Of a DNA stretch of 64,000 bases, positions 4,601 to 43,828 are shown one piece after another. Made by a program: the position numbers and the translations under genes. Every line of letters begins with the position of its first letter. The stretch's first letter is position 1. The notes below the pieces were generated by a model, which made no database searches, was not told the DNA's origin, and saw only the letters and a list, made by a program, of their open reading frames with translations. This DNA comes from a virus. The stretch lies in UHGV virus genome UHGV-1351279. One strand, written 5' to 3'.

Positions 4601-7600
4601 GATAATGTAAATTCAGTATATGATAAATTCTTCAATACTGCTACTGCTGCATCAGATTTTGCTTTAGAACTTATGAATAATGGAACTCTTGTCAACAAAT
4701 TTAATGAGGGTTCAGAAGCTACTGCTATAGCAAGTCAAGCTCCTGTAATAGCTACTAAAGGTAATAAAGTAATTAGAGATGATAGAGGAACATTAGGAGC
4801 TGGATTAGAAGTTATAGAGGATACAGCTACAGAAAATCCTAATCCTAAAGCAGCTCACTTAGGAGTGAAGTATGAAACAGTAACTCTACCTAATGGTGTT
4901 AAAGCTAAAAGATATTCTGAAGTAGAGCTTAATAATGACCCTTTTATAGATAATCATCTTGTACTTGATAAAGACTTTTTAAGTCCAGGAAGAGTACTTG
5001 ATGTTAGAGTAGCTGAAGATGCTTTAGTTACTGTATGGGATAAAGACTCAAATGGTAATAAGATAAAGAAAACTGTAAAATTTAAAGACTTAGGATTACA
5101 ACCAGGTACTCCAGAATATAATGCTAAAGTTCCTATAGTAGCTTACTATGGGGATAAACCTGTATTCTTTTTACATGACCATGAGTGGTATAATAGAACT
5201 AATATCTCTAATAGACATGGTATGCAGGACCAAATTATTAAAGATGGTTCAAGAATGATTAATGAGGTAAGAAGACAAATATTAGAAGGAGGTAAAACTC
5301 AAATCAAGATTACTGACAACCTTTTTGGTAATATGCTAAATTTAAGTAATGCTGCAAGAGAAAAAGACCAGCAACCTATAACTTTAAATGAAGCATCTAA
5401 AGGTTCTCAAATAGTAATTGCTGAAAAAACTAATACTATAAAAGCTGGAGGTGAGTTAGTACCAACAACAGACTTAGTCAATGACTTTGAGAAAAACCCT
5501 TTAATTCCAGGTGCTGCCTATGAGATAAGAGAAATAGGTGATGGTAAAAAAATATTACTTTCTGTAGCTTCTAACAGAACAGGAGAACTTGACAGTATGC
5601 CTGATATAGGATATAATACAGTTAAGTTCGGGATTATTGCTGCCTTTTATTTACTAAATAAAAATGACAGTAGATTTGAAAGTACAACAGCAGGTATTAC
5701 TAAAAAGAATAATGTTGTACACCCTACTATTGAAATAAAAAATGCTGATGGTACAGTTGAAAAAAGGATAGTAACTGTAAAACAAAAGCTTGAAAGTATG
5801 GGTATGACTGAAGATAAGGCTAAAAAAATAGCTGATGCTATACATATTGCTTATGGTATAGATATCTTAGAAGATGCTCATCTTTTATTTGAACTTTTCA
5901 CTACTACAGCAACAGGAAAAACAAGTAAACAACAGTTTTTCCAAAATGCTACTAATCCTAATAATAAACAAAAAGTAATATTACTACCTAAGAAAAGTTC
6001 AGAAGGTAAAATATCAGTTAATTATCATGTAAAAGGGTATAGTACTGCACCTGTAACTCTTAGTGGTAAAAACCTAAATGCTATTGAAATGAAACTTAAT
6101 GTAAAGCCTGATGACCAGGAAGGTTTTATAAGTTTCTTTAATTTCATGAATGCTTTGTTTAGACCCTCTAAAGAAGACGCAGAAAAAGGTATTACTAAAG
6201 GTGCTTTTTCTTATAATAACTTTATGCCTAATGATAAACAATTAGGCTCAGAAAAAACTTTAGTAAATATAACCAACAATGGAGAAATTACATCATACCA
6301 ATCTACTAATGGAAACAGCACTTACTCAGATTTTGCTAAAGACACTTTAAAAACAAATATTAAATCTTTTGAAATAGAAGGAGCTGATGGTAATAAAAAA
6401 AGTATATTAGATATACAACCTATGATTTATTATGAAGTAGTAGATGGTGAAGTCACTGCACCTCAAGCTACTTCAGCACCTAATGTAACTCCTATTACTC
6501 CTACTATAACTCCTCCAAAACAAGAAGTTAATGTAGGTCAAGTAGTAACTGCTGCTAAAGAAGAGGGTGAGCAATCTGATTTTACTAAGAGAAAAGCTGA
6601 AGCATTAAAATCAGTTGAGGAAATGAAAAAACTTATAGGTACTGAAGTAGGAGGTAAAATTTTTACTGAAGAAATGTATAAAAATGCTTTAGATTTTGCA
6701 CTTTCTGAGTTTAATGAAGACCATGATGCTTCTGTATCTATAACAATGAATCAGTATCATCTGATTCAATCCACTAAGAATAATAGAATTGATGGTATCT
6801 CTATATTAGAAGAAAATGAATTACTAAATACTTTGTTTTATAGTACTCTTGAAAGAGTTAATTTAAATAAACATGAGGTAACTCTTAGCAGTATTCAAAG
6901 GTCTTTATACAATAGCTTAAAAATAATTGAAGAAAGTAAAGAGCAGTTTGAAATTATGGCTAAAATAAACCCTGTATTAGCTTCAAGAATGAGTGCAAGG
7001 GTTGAAAAACTAAAAGCTATACTTAATCAAAAAGAGAAACTTATAGGTAAAGATGGTTCTCTAATGATTATGCTTAATAGGTTTTTTGGTGAAGAGATTG
7101 AATTTAATGAAGAAGCTCTTGAAGATAGTGATGAAAGTATTATATCTATACAAGATGGAGATGGTACTGAAAAGAACTATTCTGAATCCTCTTTAGAAAA
7201 AAATGTAAAGATAACTTTTAGTAGTAGTCTTAAAATCCTTTTAGCTCGTGTAAAAGCTAAGAACAATCAAGGAACTAATAAACTTAACTCACTACAATTA
7301 CCTATGTTTGAAGACATAGACAATGTAGTTATGACTTTACAGGAAGTATTAGTTAAGGGTAATTCTGACTTTGATTTTGTATTACAAGAATTAAAAAATA
7401 GAGGTAAATCTACAAGACCTAATGCTCAAGTATATGCTGAGCTACATAGGTTATTTGCTGATGCTCCAAAGCACATACAAAATGAAATTTTGTATAAAAT
7501 GACAAGTGATGTTCTTAGTATGTATATGATTCTTATGCAAGAAGGAGCCTATAATAATTACACTAAACTTGCTTTACAGAATGCTAATAGTTCAGCTTCT

Positions 7601-37011: not shown

Positions 37012-37397
37012 TTTTCTATTTTACTAATTAATAATTTAAAGTCTTCAAAGGTCATACTTACAATTGTATCAAATTGTGTTCTTCTTTTACCTTGTCCAAC
37101 CTCCTTTTTGTGTATAAGGATATTAGGTAAAAAGTATTCTCTTGAGCCTTCAGGAAATATTTCCCTGACTCTATCATATACATATCTAATCTCCTTAGAA
37201 GCATTTAAGCCTTTCTGCTTACCTGCTTTTATCTGAATATTCATAGGTACAAAGAGAAGGTCAATACCTGCACCATCATGCATTTTTGAACCTTCTCTTG
37301 ATGTTTTACAATGTGTAAATCCTAATTCTCTGAATGCTGAAGCAAACTCTCTTTCAGCATTACTACCTTTTCTTTTATTTGTTGCTCCTTTTGTCAT
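37002..37397 (-). CDS. Hjc-like Holliday junction resolvase (PD-(D/E)xK)
   Basis: KGSNAEREFASAFRELGF...GAGIDLLFV matches the archaeal Hjc pattern KGSxxEREL...G...DLIA. Confidence 0.5.
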   Translation of the reverse strand: MTKGATNKRKGSNAEREFASAFRELGFTHCKTSREGSKMHDGAGIDLLFVPMNIQIKAGKQKGLNASKEIRYVYDRVREIFPEGSREYFLPNILIHKKEVGQGKRRTQFDTIVSMTFEDFKLLISKIEKWD

Positions 37398-38134
37398 AAT
37401 GTACTAAAAATATCTTCTACAAGTTTATCTTCAATATAGCTAAAATATTTTTCAACTTCTTCTAAGCTATTCATTTCAGGCAATAATTTTACAGTCTTAA
37501 ATATTTTAGAGCCTAAATTAGTTGTTTCTATAATATCTATATTAAACACTCTAACAAAGTGTAAATAATAAGTGTCAAATTTCTTTCTCCATGTATTGTA
37601 TTTATCATCTGTAAGAAACTTTCTATCTATATAAAGAGTTAGATTATTCTCTAAGTTCTTATCTACAAAATCTAATTTCTCCTCTGAAGATTTCAAACTA
37701 CAAAAAGCTATAAAGAAATGATTAGGAATACATAGAGATACTAAAAGTTCATTTGTATCTAAATCCCAAAGAGACCCTTGTGCATTGAATAAATTTACTA
37801 CATTATCACCAGATTTACTTCTCATAAATGAAAAGCTTAATCTTTGTTTTTTCATGTCTGTAAAAAAGTTATTATAAGACTTTTCAAATTGATGGTCATT
37901 TATATAGCTTTTATTCATCTTGTAAGAATAATAGATACTCTTTTCAGGACTTGACACACCTTCTATAAAGTTATCATATAGAAATAAACTGTTGGCAGGT
38001 ACAATCTTATTTTCTATAAATAAACAAATATCTTTCTCTATGTAAGAACTATTACTTATATCCTTTTTTAGATAAATTGAATTTGAAAGACCACTAAAAT
38101 ATTGGAACAACAAATTGTTTAATTCTCTATTCAT
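37394..38134 (-). CDS. hypothetical protein (co-operonic with E1-like gene; 8-nt overlap)
   Basis: 246 aa. Contains CIPNHFF, loosely reminiscent of the E2 HPN motif; not convincing. Confidence 0.4.
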   Translation of the reverse strand: MNRELNNLLFQYFSGLSNSIYLKKDISNSSYIEKDICLFIENKIVPANSLFLYDNFIEGVSSPEKSIYYSYKMNKSYINDHQFEKSYNNFFTDMKKQRLSFSFMRSKSGDNVVNLFNAQGSLWDLDTNELLVSLCIPNHFFIAFCSLKSSEEKLDFVDKNLENNLTLYIDRKFLTDDKYNTWRKKFDTYYLHFVRVFNIDIIETTNLGSKIFKTVKLLPEMNSLEEVEKYFSYIEDKLVEDIFSTL

Positions 38135-38822
38135 TTATCACAGTATTCATTGGTAATATATAATCCCATCTAAAAGGAACTTCTCTATCATCTTCACCTG
38201 TTACACAATTGGATAGGTGATTAGTAAAGAATCCTACAGCATGAGAAGAAGCCATACATGAAATATGTGTTGTTGATTTTAAAGTACATACTTCATCAGG
38301 TATCTTATCATCACTAAAAAGACTCTTTTTATAATCTTCTATCTTATCTGGTGTAACACAAAAGATTTGCATGTTCTCAAAATTAAGCCTTGTATCTATA
38401 AAGATTGGTACTTTATGTTTGTCTTTTTCATTGTAGTTATTTTCAACATATTTGCACCAATTATTAAAGAATATCTCTCTTGCTTTCATATTATCAAAGC
38501 AAGAAAACATAAATTTATCAGCATAACTATTTTGGTCATAGGGGTCTTTAGATACATTTATACTTACTAATGCAAAATCTTGTATTCTTCTTCTTAAAGC
38601 ATCCACTTTATAGCTACCTACATCATTATAACCAAAAAATTGTCCAGCTAAATTATGTTCTTCAATTTTGTCAAAATCATAAACAAAAGGCTTAAAGTTC
38701 ATTCTTGCTAATAGCAAAGAGGTGAAGGAACCTAAAGAACCTGCACCACCTACTATAACATTTCTAACTTCAGAGCTGAACCATACAGCCCCTTTAAATC
38801 TACTTGTTGTTATTTCGTTCAT
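38127..38822 (-). CDS. E1-like (ThiF/MoeB-family) adenylyltransferase
   Basis: Rossmann motif VIVGGAGSLGSFTSLLLAR (~38705-38760), as in ThiF/MoeB VxVxGxGGxGS. Downstream IPDEVCTLKSTTHISCMASSHAVG resembles the PxCT active-site Cys region of E1-like enzymes. Confidence 0.5.
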   Translation of the reverse strand: MNEITTSRFKGAVWFSSEVRNVIVGGAGSLGSFTSLLLARMNFKPFVYDFDKIEEHNLAGQFFGYNDVGSYKVDALRRRIQDFALVSINVSKDPYDQNSYADKFMFSCFDNMKAREIFFNNWCKYVENNYNEKDKHKVPIFIDTRLNFENMQIFCVTPDKIEDYKKSLFSDDKIPDEVCTLKSTTHISCMASSHAVGFFTNHLSNCVTGEDDREVPFRWDYILPMNTVINE

Positions 38823-38823
38823 A

Positions 38824-39963
38824 CTAAATTTTATTAATCATTTTCTGTATTGCTTCTACAAGTACTTCAATATACTTATTATACTTGCTTGGTTTTACAG
38901 TAAGGAAATCTTCATACTCTTCAAGTAAAGCTTCAAGAACTGCTTTAAAGCCTTCATCACTTTTGATATTAGGAAAATATTCATCATAAGTAGCTTCAAA
39001 ATTGTCATAGAATGTATCTTGTAATATCTTTGGAGCTATCTCATAATCAATATAATACTCTAATACATCCATAAAGTCTTTAAAAGTAGCTCTTTCAGAA
39101 AAACTTATAAGCACATTTACTGAAAACTCAGGAATAGTATTAGTAATAAAATAATCTTTCTCAACGCTTCTTTTTAGGTCTTTTTTTTTAGAGTAGATGG
39201 TACTTGGAATTACAGGAACAAATTTTCCTGTGCTTGGAGTAACACCATAACTTTTAGAATAACTACTTACAGTACCATTACTATTATAACCAACACCATA
39301 AGTATTGTTATTATAATTATTACCATAGGTAAAGTTACTCCCATAATTATACACAGGTACTTTCATAATGTCTTCTACAGCTTGAATGAAATCTTCTCTT
39401 AGATAAGGTCTTTCAATCTCAATATCACAGTCATAAATAACTAAGTACTGTTGGTTTTCATTATCTACACTGACACTATATTCTTGACCAAACTCATCAA
39501 GAGCTTTTGCTACTGTTTGAGAAGAGTTTGTATTGGCCACAAAACAAAGCTTAGCTACCATTTGTTCTCTGTTATTTACAATAAGAGATAAATAAATGTT
39601 ATTCTTAGGAGCATTAATCTCCAAATCTCTTATATCTGTACCAGAAAAGAATGAGTCCATGTTGTTATGGCTGTGAGTTGCTCCATATAAACAATCTTCA
39701 AACTGTTCATTTTTATTAATGAAATTCACATACCTTTCATCTACTTCATATTCTGTATAAGTAGCATTACCTTTATCTAAAGGAAGAATAGCTCTTGTAA
39801 TAATTCTCAAGTTCTCAGGATTTTTTATAGAACCTTCTAAATCATAGAAAAGTAATCCCGACCATTCTACACTATTTATTCTTTTACAGAGATATGTTAT
39901 CTCGCTGTAAACCTCTTTTGTAATTGTTAATTTTACTTTTGTAGATTGATTCAAATGCTTCAT
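38824..39963 (-). CDS. JAB/MPN (JAMM) metalloprotease-domain protein with N/Y/G-rich linker and C-terminal domain
   Basis: E33 (VEWSG) and HSHNNMDSFFSGTD (~39634-39675) give E...HxHx7Sx2D, the JAMM signature. Low-complexity YNYGSNFTYGNNYNNNTYGVGYNSNG ~39240-39370. Confidence 0.55.
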   Translation of the reverse strand: MKHLNQSTKVKLTITKEVYSEITYLCKRINSVEWSGLLFYDLEGSIKNPENLRIITRAILPLDKGNATYTEYEVDERYVNFINKNEQFEDCLYGATHSHNNMDSFFSGTDIRDLEINAPKNNIYLSLIVNNREQMVAKLCFVANTNSSQTVAKALDEFGQEYSVSVDNENQQYLVIYDCDIEIERPYLREDFIQAVEDIMKVPVYNYGSNFTYGNNYNNNTYGVGYNSNGTVSSYSKSYGVTPSTGKFVPVIPSTIYSKKKDLKRSVEKDYFITNTIPEFSVNVLISFSERATFKDFMDVLEYYIDYEIAPKILQDTFYDNFEATYDEYFPNIKSDEGFKAVLEALLEEYEDFLTVKPSKYNKYIEVLVEAIQKMINKI

Positions 39964-41131
39964 TTTTTTGTATTTTTTCTAATCTTCTTGTTAAACATCT
40001 TTTTATATATTCTCTTGTCTCTTTCATCAATACCAATTTTGGTGTTATAGTATCCTTTTCATCAGGAATCTCTGTAAGAACTAATGGATACTCTTTCTGT
40101 TTATAAACTAATGGTATAATATTAAGAGAACTATCAGGTAAATAGTTTTTAAATGATACATTAAAGGTATTGTTTAAATGTAATTCGTAAACATTACCTT
40201 CTAATCTATAACATAAATAATACTTTTTGTAATTACCTAAATGCTTATTTAAAGTTTCAACTGCATATTTTTCAAATTCTTCATCAAAATCTATTTCTAA
40301 TTTACTATTAGATAGAGATATATTCACATGTGCATTACTTTTCTTATAATCTTTAAATAAAGTTTTTAGGAAATCATTATCTGATACAGCATAGTTAAAA
40401 CTTGCTCTACTATAATTACTATTTGTAGCAGGTAATCTTATATTAGAGAACTTATGATAAGGCATACCAGATAAAGATTCATAATAAACAATAGTAAACA
40501 TTTGGACAAAGAAGTTTGTCCAAAAATTCTCATTGTTATTTTCAGGTTCTACTGACTCTAATATAATTGTTGACAAATTACTTGTACCTAAACAGAATTT
40601 ACTGAAGAATATAGATGGTAAAGCCCTATTTTGTCTTTCACAGTAATTATGATAGGGTAAGTTTTCATAATGACTATGTCCATAAGAATAGTATTCTGCA
40701 AATGTCATTGTAGTTCTACCCCCTAAAATAGTAGTACAATAAGGTATCTCATTAGTATTTGACATTTCATATAAAACAAACAAGTCTTTTATACCATCAT
40801 ACTTCTCACCATTACTATTCTCTATAGTTACTTGAGGAAATCTTGTAATAAATCCTCTAAAGTATACTCTTATCTTATTACCATTTACTAACTTATAGAA
40901 AAATAAAAAATCCCAATTATCACCATAAATCTCATTTAGAGACTTTATTATTGGTTCTAATTTCTCTAAATAACCAATAGATATGTTTCTTTCAGGCCTA
41001 TCACCATAAAACAGCTTATTTTTTTTAGATTTATCTTTTAAGTATTCATAAGGATTTTCTATTTTAAGCCTAAAATAATTAGTAAGAGATGTATCAAACA
41101 AGTCACTTTTATTTCTTTTTTCTCTGTACAT
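39884..41131 (-). CDS. hypothetical protein (415 aa; 3' end overlaps JAB gene by 80 nt)
   Basis: Long ORF. C-terminal 27 codons overlap the JAB gene in a different frame. Confidence 0.4.
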   Translation of the reverse strand: MYREKRNKSDLFDTSLTNYFRLKIENPYEYLKDKSKKNKLFYGDRPERNISIGYLEKLEPIIKSLNEIYGDNWDFLFFYKLVNGNKIRVYFRGFITRFPQVTIENSNGEKYDGIKDLFVLYEMSNTNEIPYCTTILGGRTTMTFAEYYSYGHSHYENLPYHNYCERQNRALPSIFFSKFCLGTSNLSTIILESVEPENNNENFWTNFFVQMFTIVYYESLSGMPYHKFSNIRLPATNSNYSRASFNYAVSDNDFLKTLFKDYKKSNAHVNISLSNSKLEIDFDEEFEKYAVETLNKHLGNYKKYYLCYRLEGNVYELHLNNTFNVSFKNYLPDSSLNIIPLVYKQKEYPLVLTEIPDEKDTITPKLVLMKETREYIKRCLTRRLEKIQKNEAFESIYKSKINNYKRGLQRDNISL

Positions 41132-41137
41132 AACTTA

Positions 41138-41176
41138 AAATAAAAAAGAAAGAAAGTGAGGTTTCCCCCACTTTCT
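41138..41176 (-). terminator. rho-independent terminator (AGAAAGTG-10 nt-CACTTTCT plus U-tract)
   Basis: 8-bp stem. On the minus strand it is followed by TTCTTTTTTATTTT. Sits in the 74-nt gap after the 41206..41742 gene. Confidence 0.55.
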
Positions 41177-41205
41177 AAGCTTAATATAAAACAACTTTTA
41201 TGAGT

Positions 41206-41742
41206 TTACAATTTCTTCAAAAGCTCCAAATCATCTAAATCTTCTTTAGAAAGTCCATTAGAAACATTTACAGGCTGAGCCACTTTTATTTCTAATGATG
41301 CAGCATCTTTTGAAGGAATACCTCTTAGAAGAGTAATGATAGTGTTTAGTTTACCATTAAGGGTACTAAGAGTTTCTTCTACATCTGAAAATCTGTTGTG
41401 AAGAGATTCAAATTCTTCATCAAAGTCAATACCTTGCTTACCATCTTTCTGGGTAATGAAAAGCTTGAAATCTCCAGAAGGAATTTCAGCATTTGGAGAA
41501 GTTACTACTACACCTTCTCCCAAAAGAACACGCATTTCATCAAATACTTGCTCCATGCTTGAACCTACATTGGCATCTCTTACAAGTGCAGATAACTCAG
41601 AGAACTTGTTATCTTTTAATTGATAAATAACTTCATCACCTTCTATACGAGTTGATGATGTTGCATTAGGGTTTACTTCAATTTTGTACTTCCCTCTGAT
41701 ACCTCTACCTGCGAGGATTTTTACTGTTTGTACTGTTGTCAT
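41206..41742 (-). CDS. hypothetical protein
   Basis: 178-aa ORF followed by a terminator. Confidence 0.45.
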   Translation of the reverse strand: MTTVQTVKILAGRGIRGKYKIEVNPNATSSTRIEGDEVIYQLKDNKFSELSALVRDANVGSSMEQVFDEMRVLLGEGVVVTSPNAEIPSGDFKLFITQKDGKQGIDFDEEFESLHNRFSDVEETLSTLNGKLNTIITLLRGIPSKDAASLEIKVAQPVNVSNGLSKEDLDDLELLKKL

Positions 41743-43093: not shown

Positions 43094-43828
43094 TTAGAAT
43101 GGAAAATCTCCATCTAAATTTTCTCCTGTACTTTCTTCAATTGCTTCAGGAGCAGCACTTTGCTCTACTTCATCATCAGAGAGAACTAATTGATTAAATA
43201 AAGAAGTATTGAATAGATACTTACCATTGCTTTCAGACCTTCTGATAGGGTGCTTTTTGCCATCTTCAGTAACATACTCAAGTACATACTTTTCCTTGTC
43301 AAAGTGTTCTTTAAAATCACCCTCTACGTGAGGTACAAAAGTTTTACCCCAATAAGCTGTACCAAATATTGGAACTTCAAGGAAAGCTTGTTTATATCCT
43401 TGAGGTACTTTCTTTTGATATTGCATAAAAAGGTCTACCTTTACATTACCTACTTTACCTGTTTTATTGATAGCATTAGCTATAACAGTAATATAGCTTT
43501 TCCAGGAGTTAATAGGTTGTTTAAGAAGTTCTTTTAGGGTTTCTCTATCCATAAAACATTCTGCAAGTTCACAAATTTGCATTTGAGTTACTTCAGCTTG
43601 TTTCTGGTACATTTCTTTACTGTTCTCAAAACTTGTGTTTTCTTTAGGTTCAAAGAAAGTAAAGAAACCATCTTTTTCTGCACCATCTAATCTATAGTTT
43701 ACAGATAGTACATCAAGACCATTTTTTGTTTGTGTTACTTCTACTTTAGTAAAAGTAGCATTTTGGTTGAGACCAAATTTACCAAAGCTTCCTGAGAACT
43801 CTTTGGCTTCTTGAAATCCAAAATTCAT
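43094..43828 (-). CDS. SSB-like single-stranded DNA-binding protein (acidic C-terminal tail ...DGDFPF)
   Basis: C-terminus EESTGENLDGDFPF resembles the SSB acidic tail (E. coli DDDIPF). Lies between primase and helicase genes. Confidence 0.4.
   Translation of the reverse strand: MNFGFQEAKEFSGSFGKFGLNQNATFTKVEVTQTKNGLDVLSVNYRLDGAEKDGFFTFFEPKENTSFENSKEMYQKQAEVTQMQICELAECFMDRETLKELLKQPINSWKSYITVIANAINKTGKVGNVKVDLFMQYQKKVPQGYKQAFLEVPIFGTAYWGKTFVPHVEGDFKEHFDKEKYVLEYVTEDGKKHPIRRSESNGKYLFNTSLFNQLVLSDDEVEQSAAPEAIEESTGENLDGDFPF

Follow-up and report, generated by a model that had tools for sequence, protein, structure and literature searches.

A conserved gene cassette of a crAss-like phage combines E1-, JAB- and E2-like proteins with a candidate ubiquitin-like tag

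The window analysed here, a stretch of 64,000 nucleotides of the virus genome UHGV-1351279 with a G+C content of about 29%, carries on its minus strand (41742..37394) a single five-gene cassette, the genes of which are called U, X, JAB, E1 and Y from upstream to downstream and may together encode a phage pathway for the conjugation of a ubiquitin-like protein (Ubl). A first-pass annotation of the window had noted four of these as open reading frames (ORFs) at 41131..39884 (X, 415 aa), 39963..38824 (JAB, 379 aa), 38822..38127 (E1, 231 aa) and 38134..37394 (Y, 246 aa), all of which exist as described. These coordinates leave 1 nt between the end of JAB and the beginning of E1 and make E1 overlap Y by 8 nt, as had been noted; X and JAB overlap by 80 nt in different frames (39884-39963). 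The view of a tightly coupled cassette lying beside genes for an Hjc-like protein and a PD-(D/E)XK nuclease was also upheld. The remaining gene, U (178 aa, 41206..41742), lies directly upstream of X and encodes the candidate Ubl.

The 231-aa product of 38127..38822 (minus strand) was assigned by sequence as a minimal E1-like adenylating enzyme of the ThiF/MoeB/UBA5 type. Pfam ThiF (PF00899) matched it with 45.6 bits against a curated cut-off of 28.1 (E = 6.5e-12) and the NCBIfam ThiF model with an E-value of 9.5e-14; Cap2-like and PRTRC ThiF models matched at low score, and the PADLOC Cap2 similarity spans residues ~5-104, mostly 18-90. A family profile built from 19 homologues and run against the PDB matched 56 sequences, every one of them E1-like, with UBA5 as the best (7e-12), followed by MccB, ThiF, PaaA, TcdA, UBA3, MoeB, UBA1, SAE2, Cap2, Uba4 and BubCD. 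Ordinary dehydrogenases were absent among these matches, and the lone dehydrogenase match of E1, to the NCBIfam model of 3-hydroxyacyl-CoA dehydrogenase, was sub-threshold (16.7 vs 312 bits). The ThiF/MoeB-type E1 proposed from the nucleotide-binding loop was thus borne out by the Pfam score and the PDB profile, and the possibility raised alongside it, that this is a non-E1 Rossmann protein such as a plain dehydrogenase, found no match in the PDB.

Invariant positions of the E1 family are R8, the GxGxxG loop (G26xG28, with S32), D49/D51, K72, F-D110-N-M-x-A-R115, D143 and C179, and F-D-N-M-x-A-R is the counterpart of the T-D-N-x-x-x-R catalytic Asp motif in ThiF/MoeB. Cys179 is the single invariant cysteine, both among the 19 homologues and among 44 independently seeded sequences; it is one of two cysteines quoted earlier as a Cys region, the other of which is not conserved. 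The catalytic Asp and Cys179 lie 69 residues apart, compared with 67 residues in UBA5, and the hidden Markov model (HMM) alignments end before the Cys179 region. Neither a CxxC zinc site nor a rhodanese domain nor a fused E2 was found in E1. Public phage records (KT876724, MH675552 and others) call the protein 'thiamine biosynthesis protein (ThiF)', which is probably a functional mis-annotation because E1 has fixed partner genes, and the NCBI label is 'E1 enzyme family protein'.

Some E1 homologues differ in length or in company. The E1 of crAss001, gp76 (5551-6702 of locus L001 in our numbering of related loci), has an N-terminal extension of ~150 aa that is not in the window protein, and in the 90% cluster of crAss001-type E1 the called extensions are ~56-148 aa, giving proteins of 292-384 aa. 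In the Xanthomonas jumbo phage PhiXhv-12 (L039, 2262-5636), a clear homologue of E1 (family profile, 1e-32) adjoins a Cys-rich protein of 892 aa in which 'IHPHM...LCLGS' occurs, with topoisomerase genes alongside. The 'HPH...CLGS' protein was considered as a relative of X and rejected, its similarity to X being not significant, and JAB and U were not detected near this E1 homologue.

The gene immediately upstream of E1 (38824..39963, minus strand) encodes a 379-aa protein that its motif identifies as a JAB/JAMM metallopeptidase. Residues E33, H97, H99, S107 and D110 have the canonical E...H-x-H-x7-S-x2-D spacing and are invariant in 17 diverse homologues, as well as in all ungapped sequences of an independently seeded set. 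The signature read from the window protein is hence a family feature, which speaks against a non-JAB fold for the HxH..S..D segment. The PADLOC JAB model matched residues 4-124 (5.5e-6), Pfam Prok-JAB scored 15.7 bits, below its cut-off of 25, and the JAB profile found in the PDB a weak match to JAMM1 only (E = 0.18). The JAMM domain covers residues ~1-140 (39544-39963, minus strand) and is followed by the N/Y/G-rich linker and the additional C-terminal domain seen in the first reading, the latter being variable and poorly conserved. An identical protein is named 'proteasome lid subunit RPN8/RPN11' in IMG, and other records have 'metalloprotease domain'. With both identities in place, E1 and JAB form the type of pair by which prokaryotic systems for attaching and removing Ubls are defined, as had been suggested.

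Some public gene calls put the JAB start 51 codons further downstream (328 aa), with which the catalytic Glu33 would be lost. In several related phages the JAB gene is interrupted by group I introns (Rfam RF00028, gathering score 50), with matches of 79, 63.8 and 59.5 bits at 4880-5106 of L006, 3962-4198 of L010 and 4815-5039 of L013, respectively. The insert in L006 comprises 249 nt and falls within codon 98, where it separates the zinc-binding His residues of the H-S-H motif. An insert of ~1 kb, carrying an annotated endonuclease, is found in the JAB gene of the Fpv1, Fpv2, Fpv20 and FpV21 group. The window JAB gene (38824-39963) is uninterrupted.

Protein X (415 aa, 39884..41131, minus strand) had no matches in Pfam, NCBIfam or PADLOC and only function-unknown ones in PHROGs. 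Its sequence profile matched nothing in the PDB, and hhalign against UBE2D2, UBE2I and UBE2N gave a probability of 0.2%. AlphaFold2, run on a 114-sequence alignment, returned a confident model (predicted local distance difference test, pLDDT, 87.5; predicted template modelling score, pTM, 0.79) in which a catalytic-looking N-terminal domain occupies residues ~40-230, another domain, of alpha/beta type, ~250-368, and a long helix near the C-terminus 370-411. In Foldseek searches, the X model had no PDB match, and its BFVD matches were uncharacterised phage proteins only. The N-terminal half of the model matches UBC/UEV/RWD (E2-type) folds only, with modest scores, and kinetochore and Mediator proteins are among these structural matches. 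The model runs from N-terminal helices through a four-stranded antiparallel meander (73-143) and a Y-x-H-S-H loop to Cys180 and further helices. A helix, a meander, a His motif, a Cys and helices, in this order, are the elements of E2 enzymes (HPN...Cys).

The loop after the beta-meander, Y150-x-H152-S-H154...F179-C180-x-G182 (40592..40678, minus strand), is the candidate E2 active site. H154, C180, E218, S219, G222 and P224 are invariant in the 114-sequence alignment, and H154 and C180 were invariant in an independent set too (67/67 and 66/66). In contrast, H152 is His in only 50 of 66 independent sequences and Phe or Gln in the other 16, which makes an active site of His and Cys likelier than an HxH metal site. 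The spacing of His154 and Cys180 is 26 residues vs ~10 in canonical E2s and the motif is HSH or HPH vs HPN, with the order in the sequence matching that of E2. The UBC-type fold predicted for 39884..41131, together with the invariant His/Cys pair, points with modest strength to an E2-like protein. The X family is large, with 620 representative clusters (50% identity) in a library of 1.84 billion proteins; a protein search with a joined X and Y alignment recovered the same 13 close X homologues and none further. X also carries an invariant W-E-S-L-E-G-x-P-Y motif (residues 218-224, window 40460-40480) just past the helix following Cys180, which may have a structural role, belong to the active site or mark a site of processing.

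The gene directly upstream of X belongs to one family in 32 related loci. An HMM of this U family was built from these loci without the window sequence, and the 178-aa protein encoded by 41206..41742 (minus strand) was its best match in the window proteome (E = 0.0015). The family has a conserved N-terminal domain of 73-90 residues, or 104 residues in the window clade, which has an insertion. The pattern of the domain is M-R-x-I-x-V-x-S...A-T-T-W-G-E-L-K...M-K-A-V-V-R-E-T-R-x-T-L...A-x-L-P-x-G-D-F-x-L-F-L-x-P-x-K-V-K-S-G, of which only the final Gly and one Leu are invariant. The last profile position is Gly in 22/22 sequences and in 70/70 distinct, independently seeded proteins. What follows the Gly is bimodal, with a stop 1-5 residues past it in 11 of the 70 and a tail of more than 30 aa in 58; some family members are 75-83 aa long and end 1-5 residues past the Gly, and the others have a long variable tail. 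In the window protein, the Ubl-like domain (residues 1-104, 41431..41742, minus strand) ends at Gly104 (codon 41431-41433, in the context ...DFKLFITQKDGKQG followed by IDFDEE), and a helical-looking tail of 74 aa comes after it. Gly104 is the predicted site of JAB processing and the residue predicted to be adenylated.

The weak, sub-threshold similarities of U were all to Ubl folds, namely the RBBP6 DWNN domain (E = 0.11; hhalign P 7e-4) and the Pfam families OTU1_UBXL and SAMP2 (near 0.08). Chou-Fasman propensities across the U alignment were too coarse to inform on secondary structure, and none of the 261 proteins collected was a fusion of U to X, JAB or E1. Ubl precursors are classically recognised by a small domain with a C-terminal Gly and an extension, encoded next to genes for a JAMM peptidase and an E1 (Iyer et al., PMC1779556; also the Bub study, PMC11601596). 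Because U combines a Gly-ended small domain with a dispensable tail and is always found beside a JAMM peptidase and an E1, we liken it to a Ubl pro-protein and regard it as a candidate Ubl precursor, for which we infer a β-grasp fold. The first-pass statement that no obvious Ubl is visible nearby was thus wrong in substance, as a Gly-ended candidate lies just outside the region that it covered.

The fifth gene, Y (246 aa, 37394..38134, minus strand), is the variable member of the cassette. A recognisable Y family follows E1 in 19 of 39 loci, and the remaining loci have non-alignable genes of 190-310 aa in this slot. By hhalign, one further group is tied to the Y family (65% probability), and crAss001 gp75 and two other groups were not linked, so that a single family for all Y-slot genes holds only in part. 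No match of Y was obtained in Pfam, PHROG functions, NCBIfam or PADLOC, and on a public contig with the window genes U, X and Y are all without a precomputed Pfam annotation. The first reading had taken Y as E2-like on account of a CIPNH motif. This assignment was rejected, as CIPNH aligns to V/I-K-x-E in the homologues, the family has no invariant residue and hence no conserved Cys or His, there is no family match, the structural model is unusable and the slot is variable; the E2-type fold sits in X instead. Possible roles for Y are those of an adaptor or of a target. Its C-terminus consists, in 6 of 16 loci, of an acidic stretch and LPF, LPW or VLW, resembling the C-terminal tips of single-strand-binding proteins (window 37394-38134 and homologues in L002, L012, L014, L017, L020 and L026), and a 244-aa protein of the window (43094-43828) ends in DGDFPF. 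Judged from this tip, Y may dock on replisome proteins.

The association of these genes was assessed from three starting points. In loci seeded with E1 (35 IMG/VR loci together with crAss001, FpV4 and a bajarodcaudo virus), JAB is immediately upstream of E1 wherever there is sequence, and X lies directly upstream of JAB in 38 of 39. Nine contigs of metagenome-assembled genomes (MAGs) from a species-genome collection carry E1; X, JAB and E1 are colinear in all seven with enough upstream sequence, and the U profile found its gene upstream of X in five of these loci. A DNA pattern for the X motif WESLEGxPY yielded 90 IMG/VR stretches, 75 of which carry X, and where the flanks were long enough JAB was present in 53/53, E1 in 42/43 and U in 62/62. 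From these counts, U, X, JAB and E1 form a near-obligate colinear set. The block occurs in crAss001 (gp79-gp75, with U, X, JAB and E1 as gp79-gp76), FpV4 and the bajarodcaudo virus, and its position is after a primase gene and before genes for uracil-DNA glycosylase, the Hjc-like protein and the PD-(D/E)XK nuclease.

The surroundings of the cassette in the window fit this position. It is part of a long run of minus-strand genes that also encodes a DnaB-like helicase, a SNF2/ResIII-type helicase, an AAA_24 ATPase, a superfamily 1 helicase and a family-A polymerase, and the window primase is homologous to crAss001 gp80 and to the toprim protein of FpV4. By megablast, the region matched none of 50,697 phage records, so that no near-identical record is among them, and relatives were detectable at the protein level only. 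The nearest cultured ones are phages of the FpV4 group of Flavobacterium psychrophilum (E1 47% identical) and Crassvirales such as crAss001, DAC15/17 and the genomes cr106/111/112/128. On the basis of the neighbouring replication genes and the protein-level relatives, we place the window in a crAss-like phage and the cassette within its replication module.

Two bacterial systems offer the closest templates. As described in the Bub study (PMC11601596), type I Bub (6E.1/DUF6527) consists of BubAB, a Ubl-E2 fusion, BubCD, a JAB-E1 fusion, and BubE, and the JAB domain cleaves the pro-Ubl after Gly before a minimal homodimeric E1 adenylates it. The phage gene order Ubl, E2, JAB, E1 is the domain order of Bub. 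In contrast to Bub, the phage has four separate genes rather than two fusions, E1 and X retain invariant Cys residues whereas Bub lacks these and uses Tyr and Ser oxyesters, no DUF6527/BubE serine protease was found among the phage proteins scanned against Pfam, and the phage cassette sits in the replication module of lytic-type phages rather than in bacterial defence islands; nor does it belong to Bub by family-level sequence membership. Bil resembles the cassette in having four separate proteins in the same roles (BilA as Ubl, BilB as E2, BilC as JAB and BilD as E1), and conjugation of its Ubl to lysine without an E3, with the E2 thought to choose the targets, is proven (summarised in PMC11601596). 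However, the E1 of Bil is a large IAD-AAD-CYS multidomain protein and that of the phage a single adenylation domain of 231 aa, the E2-like X is 415 aa long with extra domains, no sequence match ties the two systems, and the roles of host and virus are inverted.

Since the parts and their order match type I Bub and the list of parts matches Bil, we propose that the cassette is a self-contained, working phage Ubl-conjugation pathway in the replication module, an interpretation that we consider fairly probable. In this pathway, the JAMM peptidase would cut the pro-Ubl U after Gly104 and so remove the tail, and the minimal, presumably homodimeric E1 would adenylate the exposed Gly carboxylate with ATP and probably then move the tag onto its own Cys179. 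As both E1 and X keep a Cys, ordinary thioester chemistry is expected; the tag would be handed to Cys180 of X with the help of His154, and X would ligate it to a lysine residue on a protein either of the phage or of the host while infection is in its replication phase, perhaps via its C-terminal domains and possibly together with Y. Removal of the mark may be a second task of the JAMM enzyme. With a tag, an E2-like protein and an E1 of its own, the cassette looks more like an entire conjugation pathway than like a deconjugase acting alone. Each chemical step, the β-grasp fold of U and the choice of target are put forward as deductions from these likenesses. Several points weigh against the proposal. 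The similarity of U to Ubls is not significant (E = 0.11; hhalign probability 26%), Cys179 of E1 was matched to the crossover-loop catalytic Cys by its spacing alone, H154 and C180 of X are a candidate E2 active site by their order and not by coordinates, the AlphaFold model of Y had a pLDDT of 45, and the cassette comes without an E3.

The same E1 and JAB could serve other chemistry. U might be a carrier of the ThiS/MoaD/CysO type that is trimmed by JAB, adenylated by E1 and used as a thiocarboxylate sulfur donor for a phage metabolite or thio-nucleotide, with X as the acceptor enzyme. ThiF and MoeB are indeed among the best NCBIfam and PDB matches of E1, which is as small as ThiF, JAMM trimming of a Gly-ended carrier is known there, for example by Mec+ on CysO and by QbsD on QbsE (PMC1779556), and the cassette lies among genes of nucleotide and DNA metabolism. 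The likeness to these systems (CysO/Mec+/MoeZ and QbsE/QbsD/QbsC, as well as ThiS-ThiF and MoaD-MoeB) thus extends to a minimal ThiF-like E1 and a small Gly carrier that a JAMM enzyme can unmask. However, E1 has no rhodanese domain, and no cysteine desulfurase, sulfurtransferase or other sulfur-transfer enzyme, nor any ThiG- or MoaE-like gene, is part of the conserved block, which instead holds a protein whose predicted UBC-type fold and His/Cys pair point to conjugation. The E1-like enzymes of conjugation operons lack rhodanese and always have JAB adjacent or fused (Iyer et al., PMC1779556), and both traits hold in the phage cassette, so that we consider a sulfur-carrier pathway unlikely. An E1 of the MccB, PaaA or TcdA kind that activates a peptide or nucleotide-linked carboxylate by adenylation, leading to cyclisation or an N-P bond, with X as a metal-binding UBC-like scaffold, strikes us as very improbable. 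These three enzymes are among the best PDB matches of the E1 profile, the invariant H154, C180 and E218 of X could bind metal, and many UBC/RWD folds have no catalytic role, the kinetochore and Mediator matches of X being examples. Against this, the replacement of H152 by Phe or Gln in 16/66 weakens an HxH metal site, a universal JAB and a Gly-ended small domain are not known as features of MccB, PaaA and TcdA systems, and substrates of the MccB type end in Asn, whereas U ends in Gly.

A different question is whether the cassette acts on the conjugates of the host. The first-pass annotation had leaned towards such a role, in which the JAMM enzyme strips host Bil, CBASS or Bub conjugates, or the E1 and E2-like pair diverts host Ubl or CD-NTase C-termini. 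JAB and E1 do resemble the CBASS-type JAB and E1-E2 models of PADLOC, the best matches in that defence library, and the chemistry of E1, E2 and JAMM is shared with the Cap2/Cap3 part of type II CBASS. Phages commonly capture and invert parts of host defence, and every characterised bacterial relative either is an anti-phage system or is presumed to be one (PMC11601596). Yet a deconjugase needs neither a Gly-ended tag candidate nor an E2-like protein, and the cassette has both in essentially every locus; that its place in the replication module stays the same over widely differing phages and hosts speaks for a core function and against an accessory role in countering defence, and the similarity to Cap2 is limited to the Rossmann part of E1. 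Unlike type II CBASS, the cassette has its E2-like protein and E1 unfused and a separate tag candidate, whereas CBASS activates the C-terminus of its own cyclase, and a PADLOC scan of four cassette proteins matched no CD-NTase or effector. Removal or diversion of host conjugates is hence quite unlikely as an account of the whole cassette; counter-defence could nevertheless be the biological purpose of conjugation.

Two further systems of mobile elements and phages share features with the proposed conjugation cassette. PRTRC, found on plasmids and integrative and conjugative elements, is likewise a cassette of mobile elements, the members of which include a protein of the ThiF family, the JAB-like protein A and the small protein C. 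However, NCBIfam PRTRC_ThiF matched at 6.3e-7 with 29 vs 144.75 bits and PRTRC_A at 0.16 with 11.5 vs 101.8 bits, the phage block has no ParB, and the partner genes differ. In the tail assembly of lambdoid phages and T1, TAPI (Ubl) is combined with TAPK (JAB and NlpC), which is the only earlier-described phage pairing of an extended, Gly-ended Ubl-like domain with a JAB (PMC1779556). In contrast to the cassette, the tail system is without E1 and E2, belongs to the tail morphogenesis module and is for processing only.

The chemistry and the roles discussed here are already known, and E1 and JAB are individually recognisable in public records, in which U and X are labelled as hypothetical proteins only. 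New are the phage as the carrier, the E2-like and tag families and the genomic setting. A full-text literature search that did not reach subscription journals yielded no paper in which crAss-like phages are connected with ThiF, JAB or E1 and no description of the cassette or of a phage-encoded Ubl-conjugation system, and neither the Bil preprint nor the sections of the Bub study (PMC11601596) that were covered mention phage-encoded versions. Whether a large group of phages, comprising crAss-like ones from Bacteroides of the human gut such as crAss001 and the FpV4 group of Flavobacterium, builds its own Ubl machinery as a fixed component of the replication module and covalently tags replisome or defence proteins of phage or host in the course of infection is in our view an even call. 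If so, the machinery would mirror Bil, Bub and CBASS of the host, might be their evolutionary source or a counter-weapon to them, and would be the first Ubl-conjugation pathway encoded by a virus of bacteria. Conjugation of the ubiquitin type was recently established as a weapon of prokaryotes against phages, through CBASS Cap2/Cap3, Bil and probably Bub, and with a complete and conserved phage counterpart both sides would use this chemistry. Tagging could serve replisome remodelling, host takeover or immune evasion, and the cultured phages crAss001, DAC15/17 and FpV4 offer an experimental handle on which proteins the phage tags and why. The analysis further defines two large uncharacterised families, the E2-like X and the Gly-ended tag U.

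Elsewhere in the window, the coding strand switches near 25.7 kb, and the plus strand carries three consecutive giant ORFs of 4508, 1798 and 1670 aa (1679-25625), which are typical of the block of virion RNA polymerase and cargo proteins of crAss-like phages. The cassette was also observed on two very large MAG contigs, L040 (Puia sp., 373 kb) and L045 (Bacilli, 640 kb), which could be integrated or plasmid-like crAss-type elements or chimeric assemblies.

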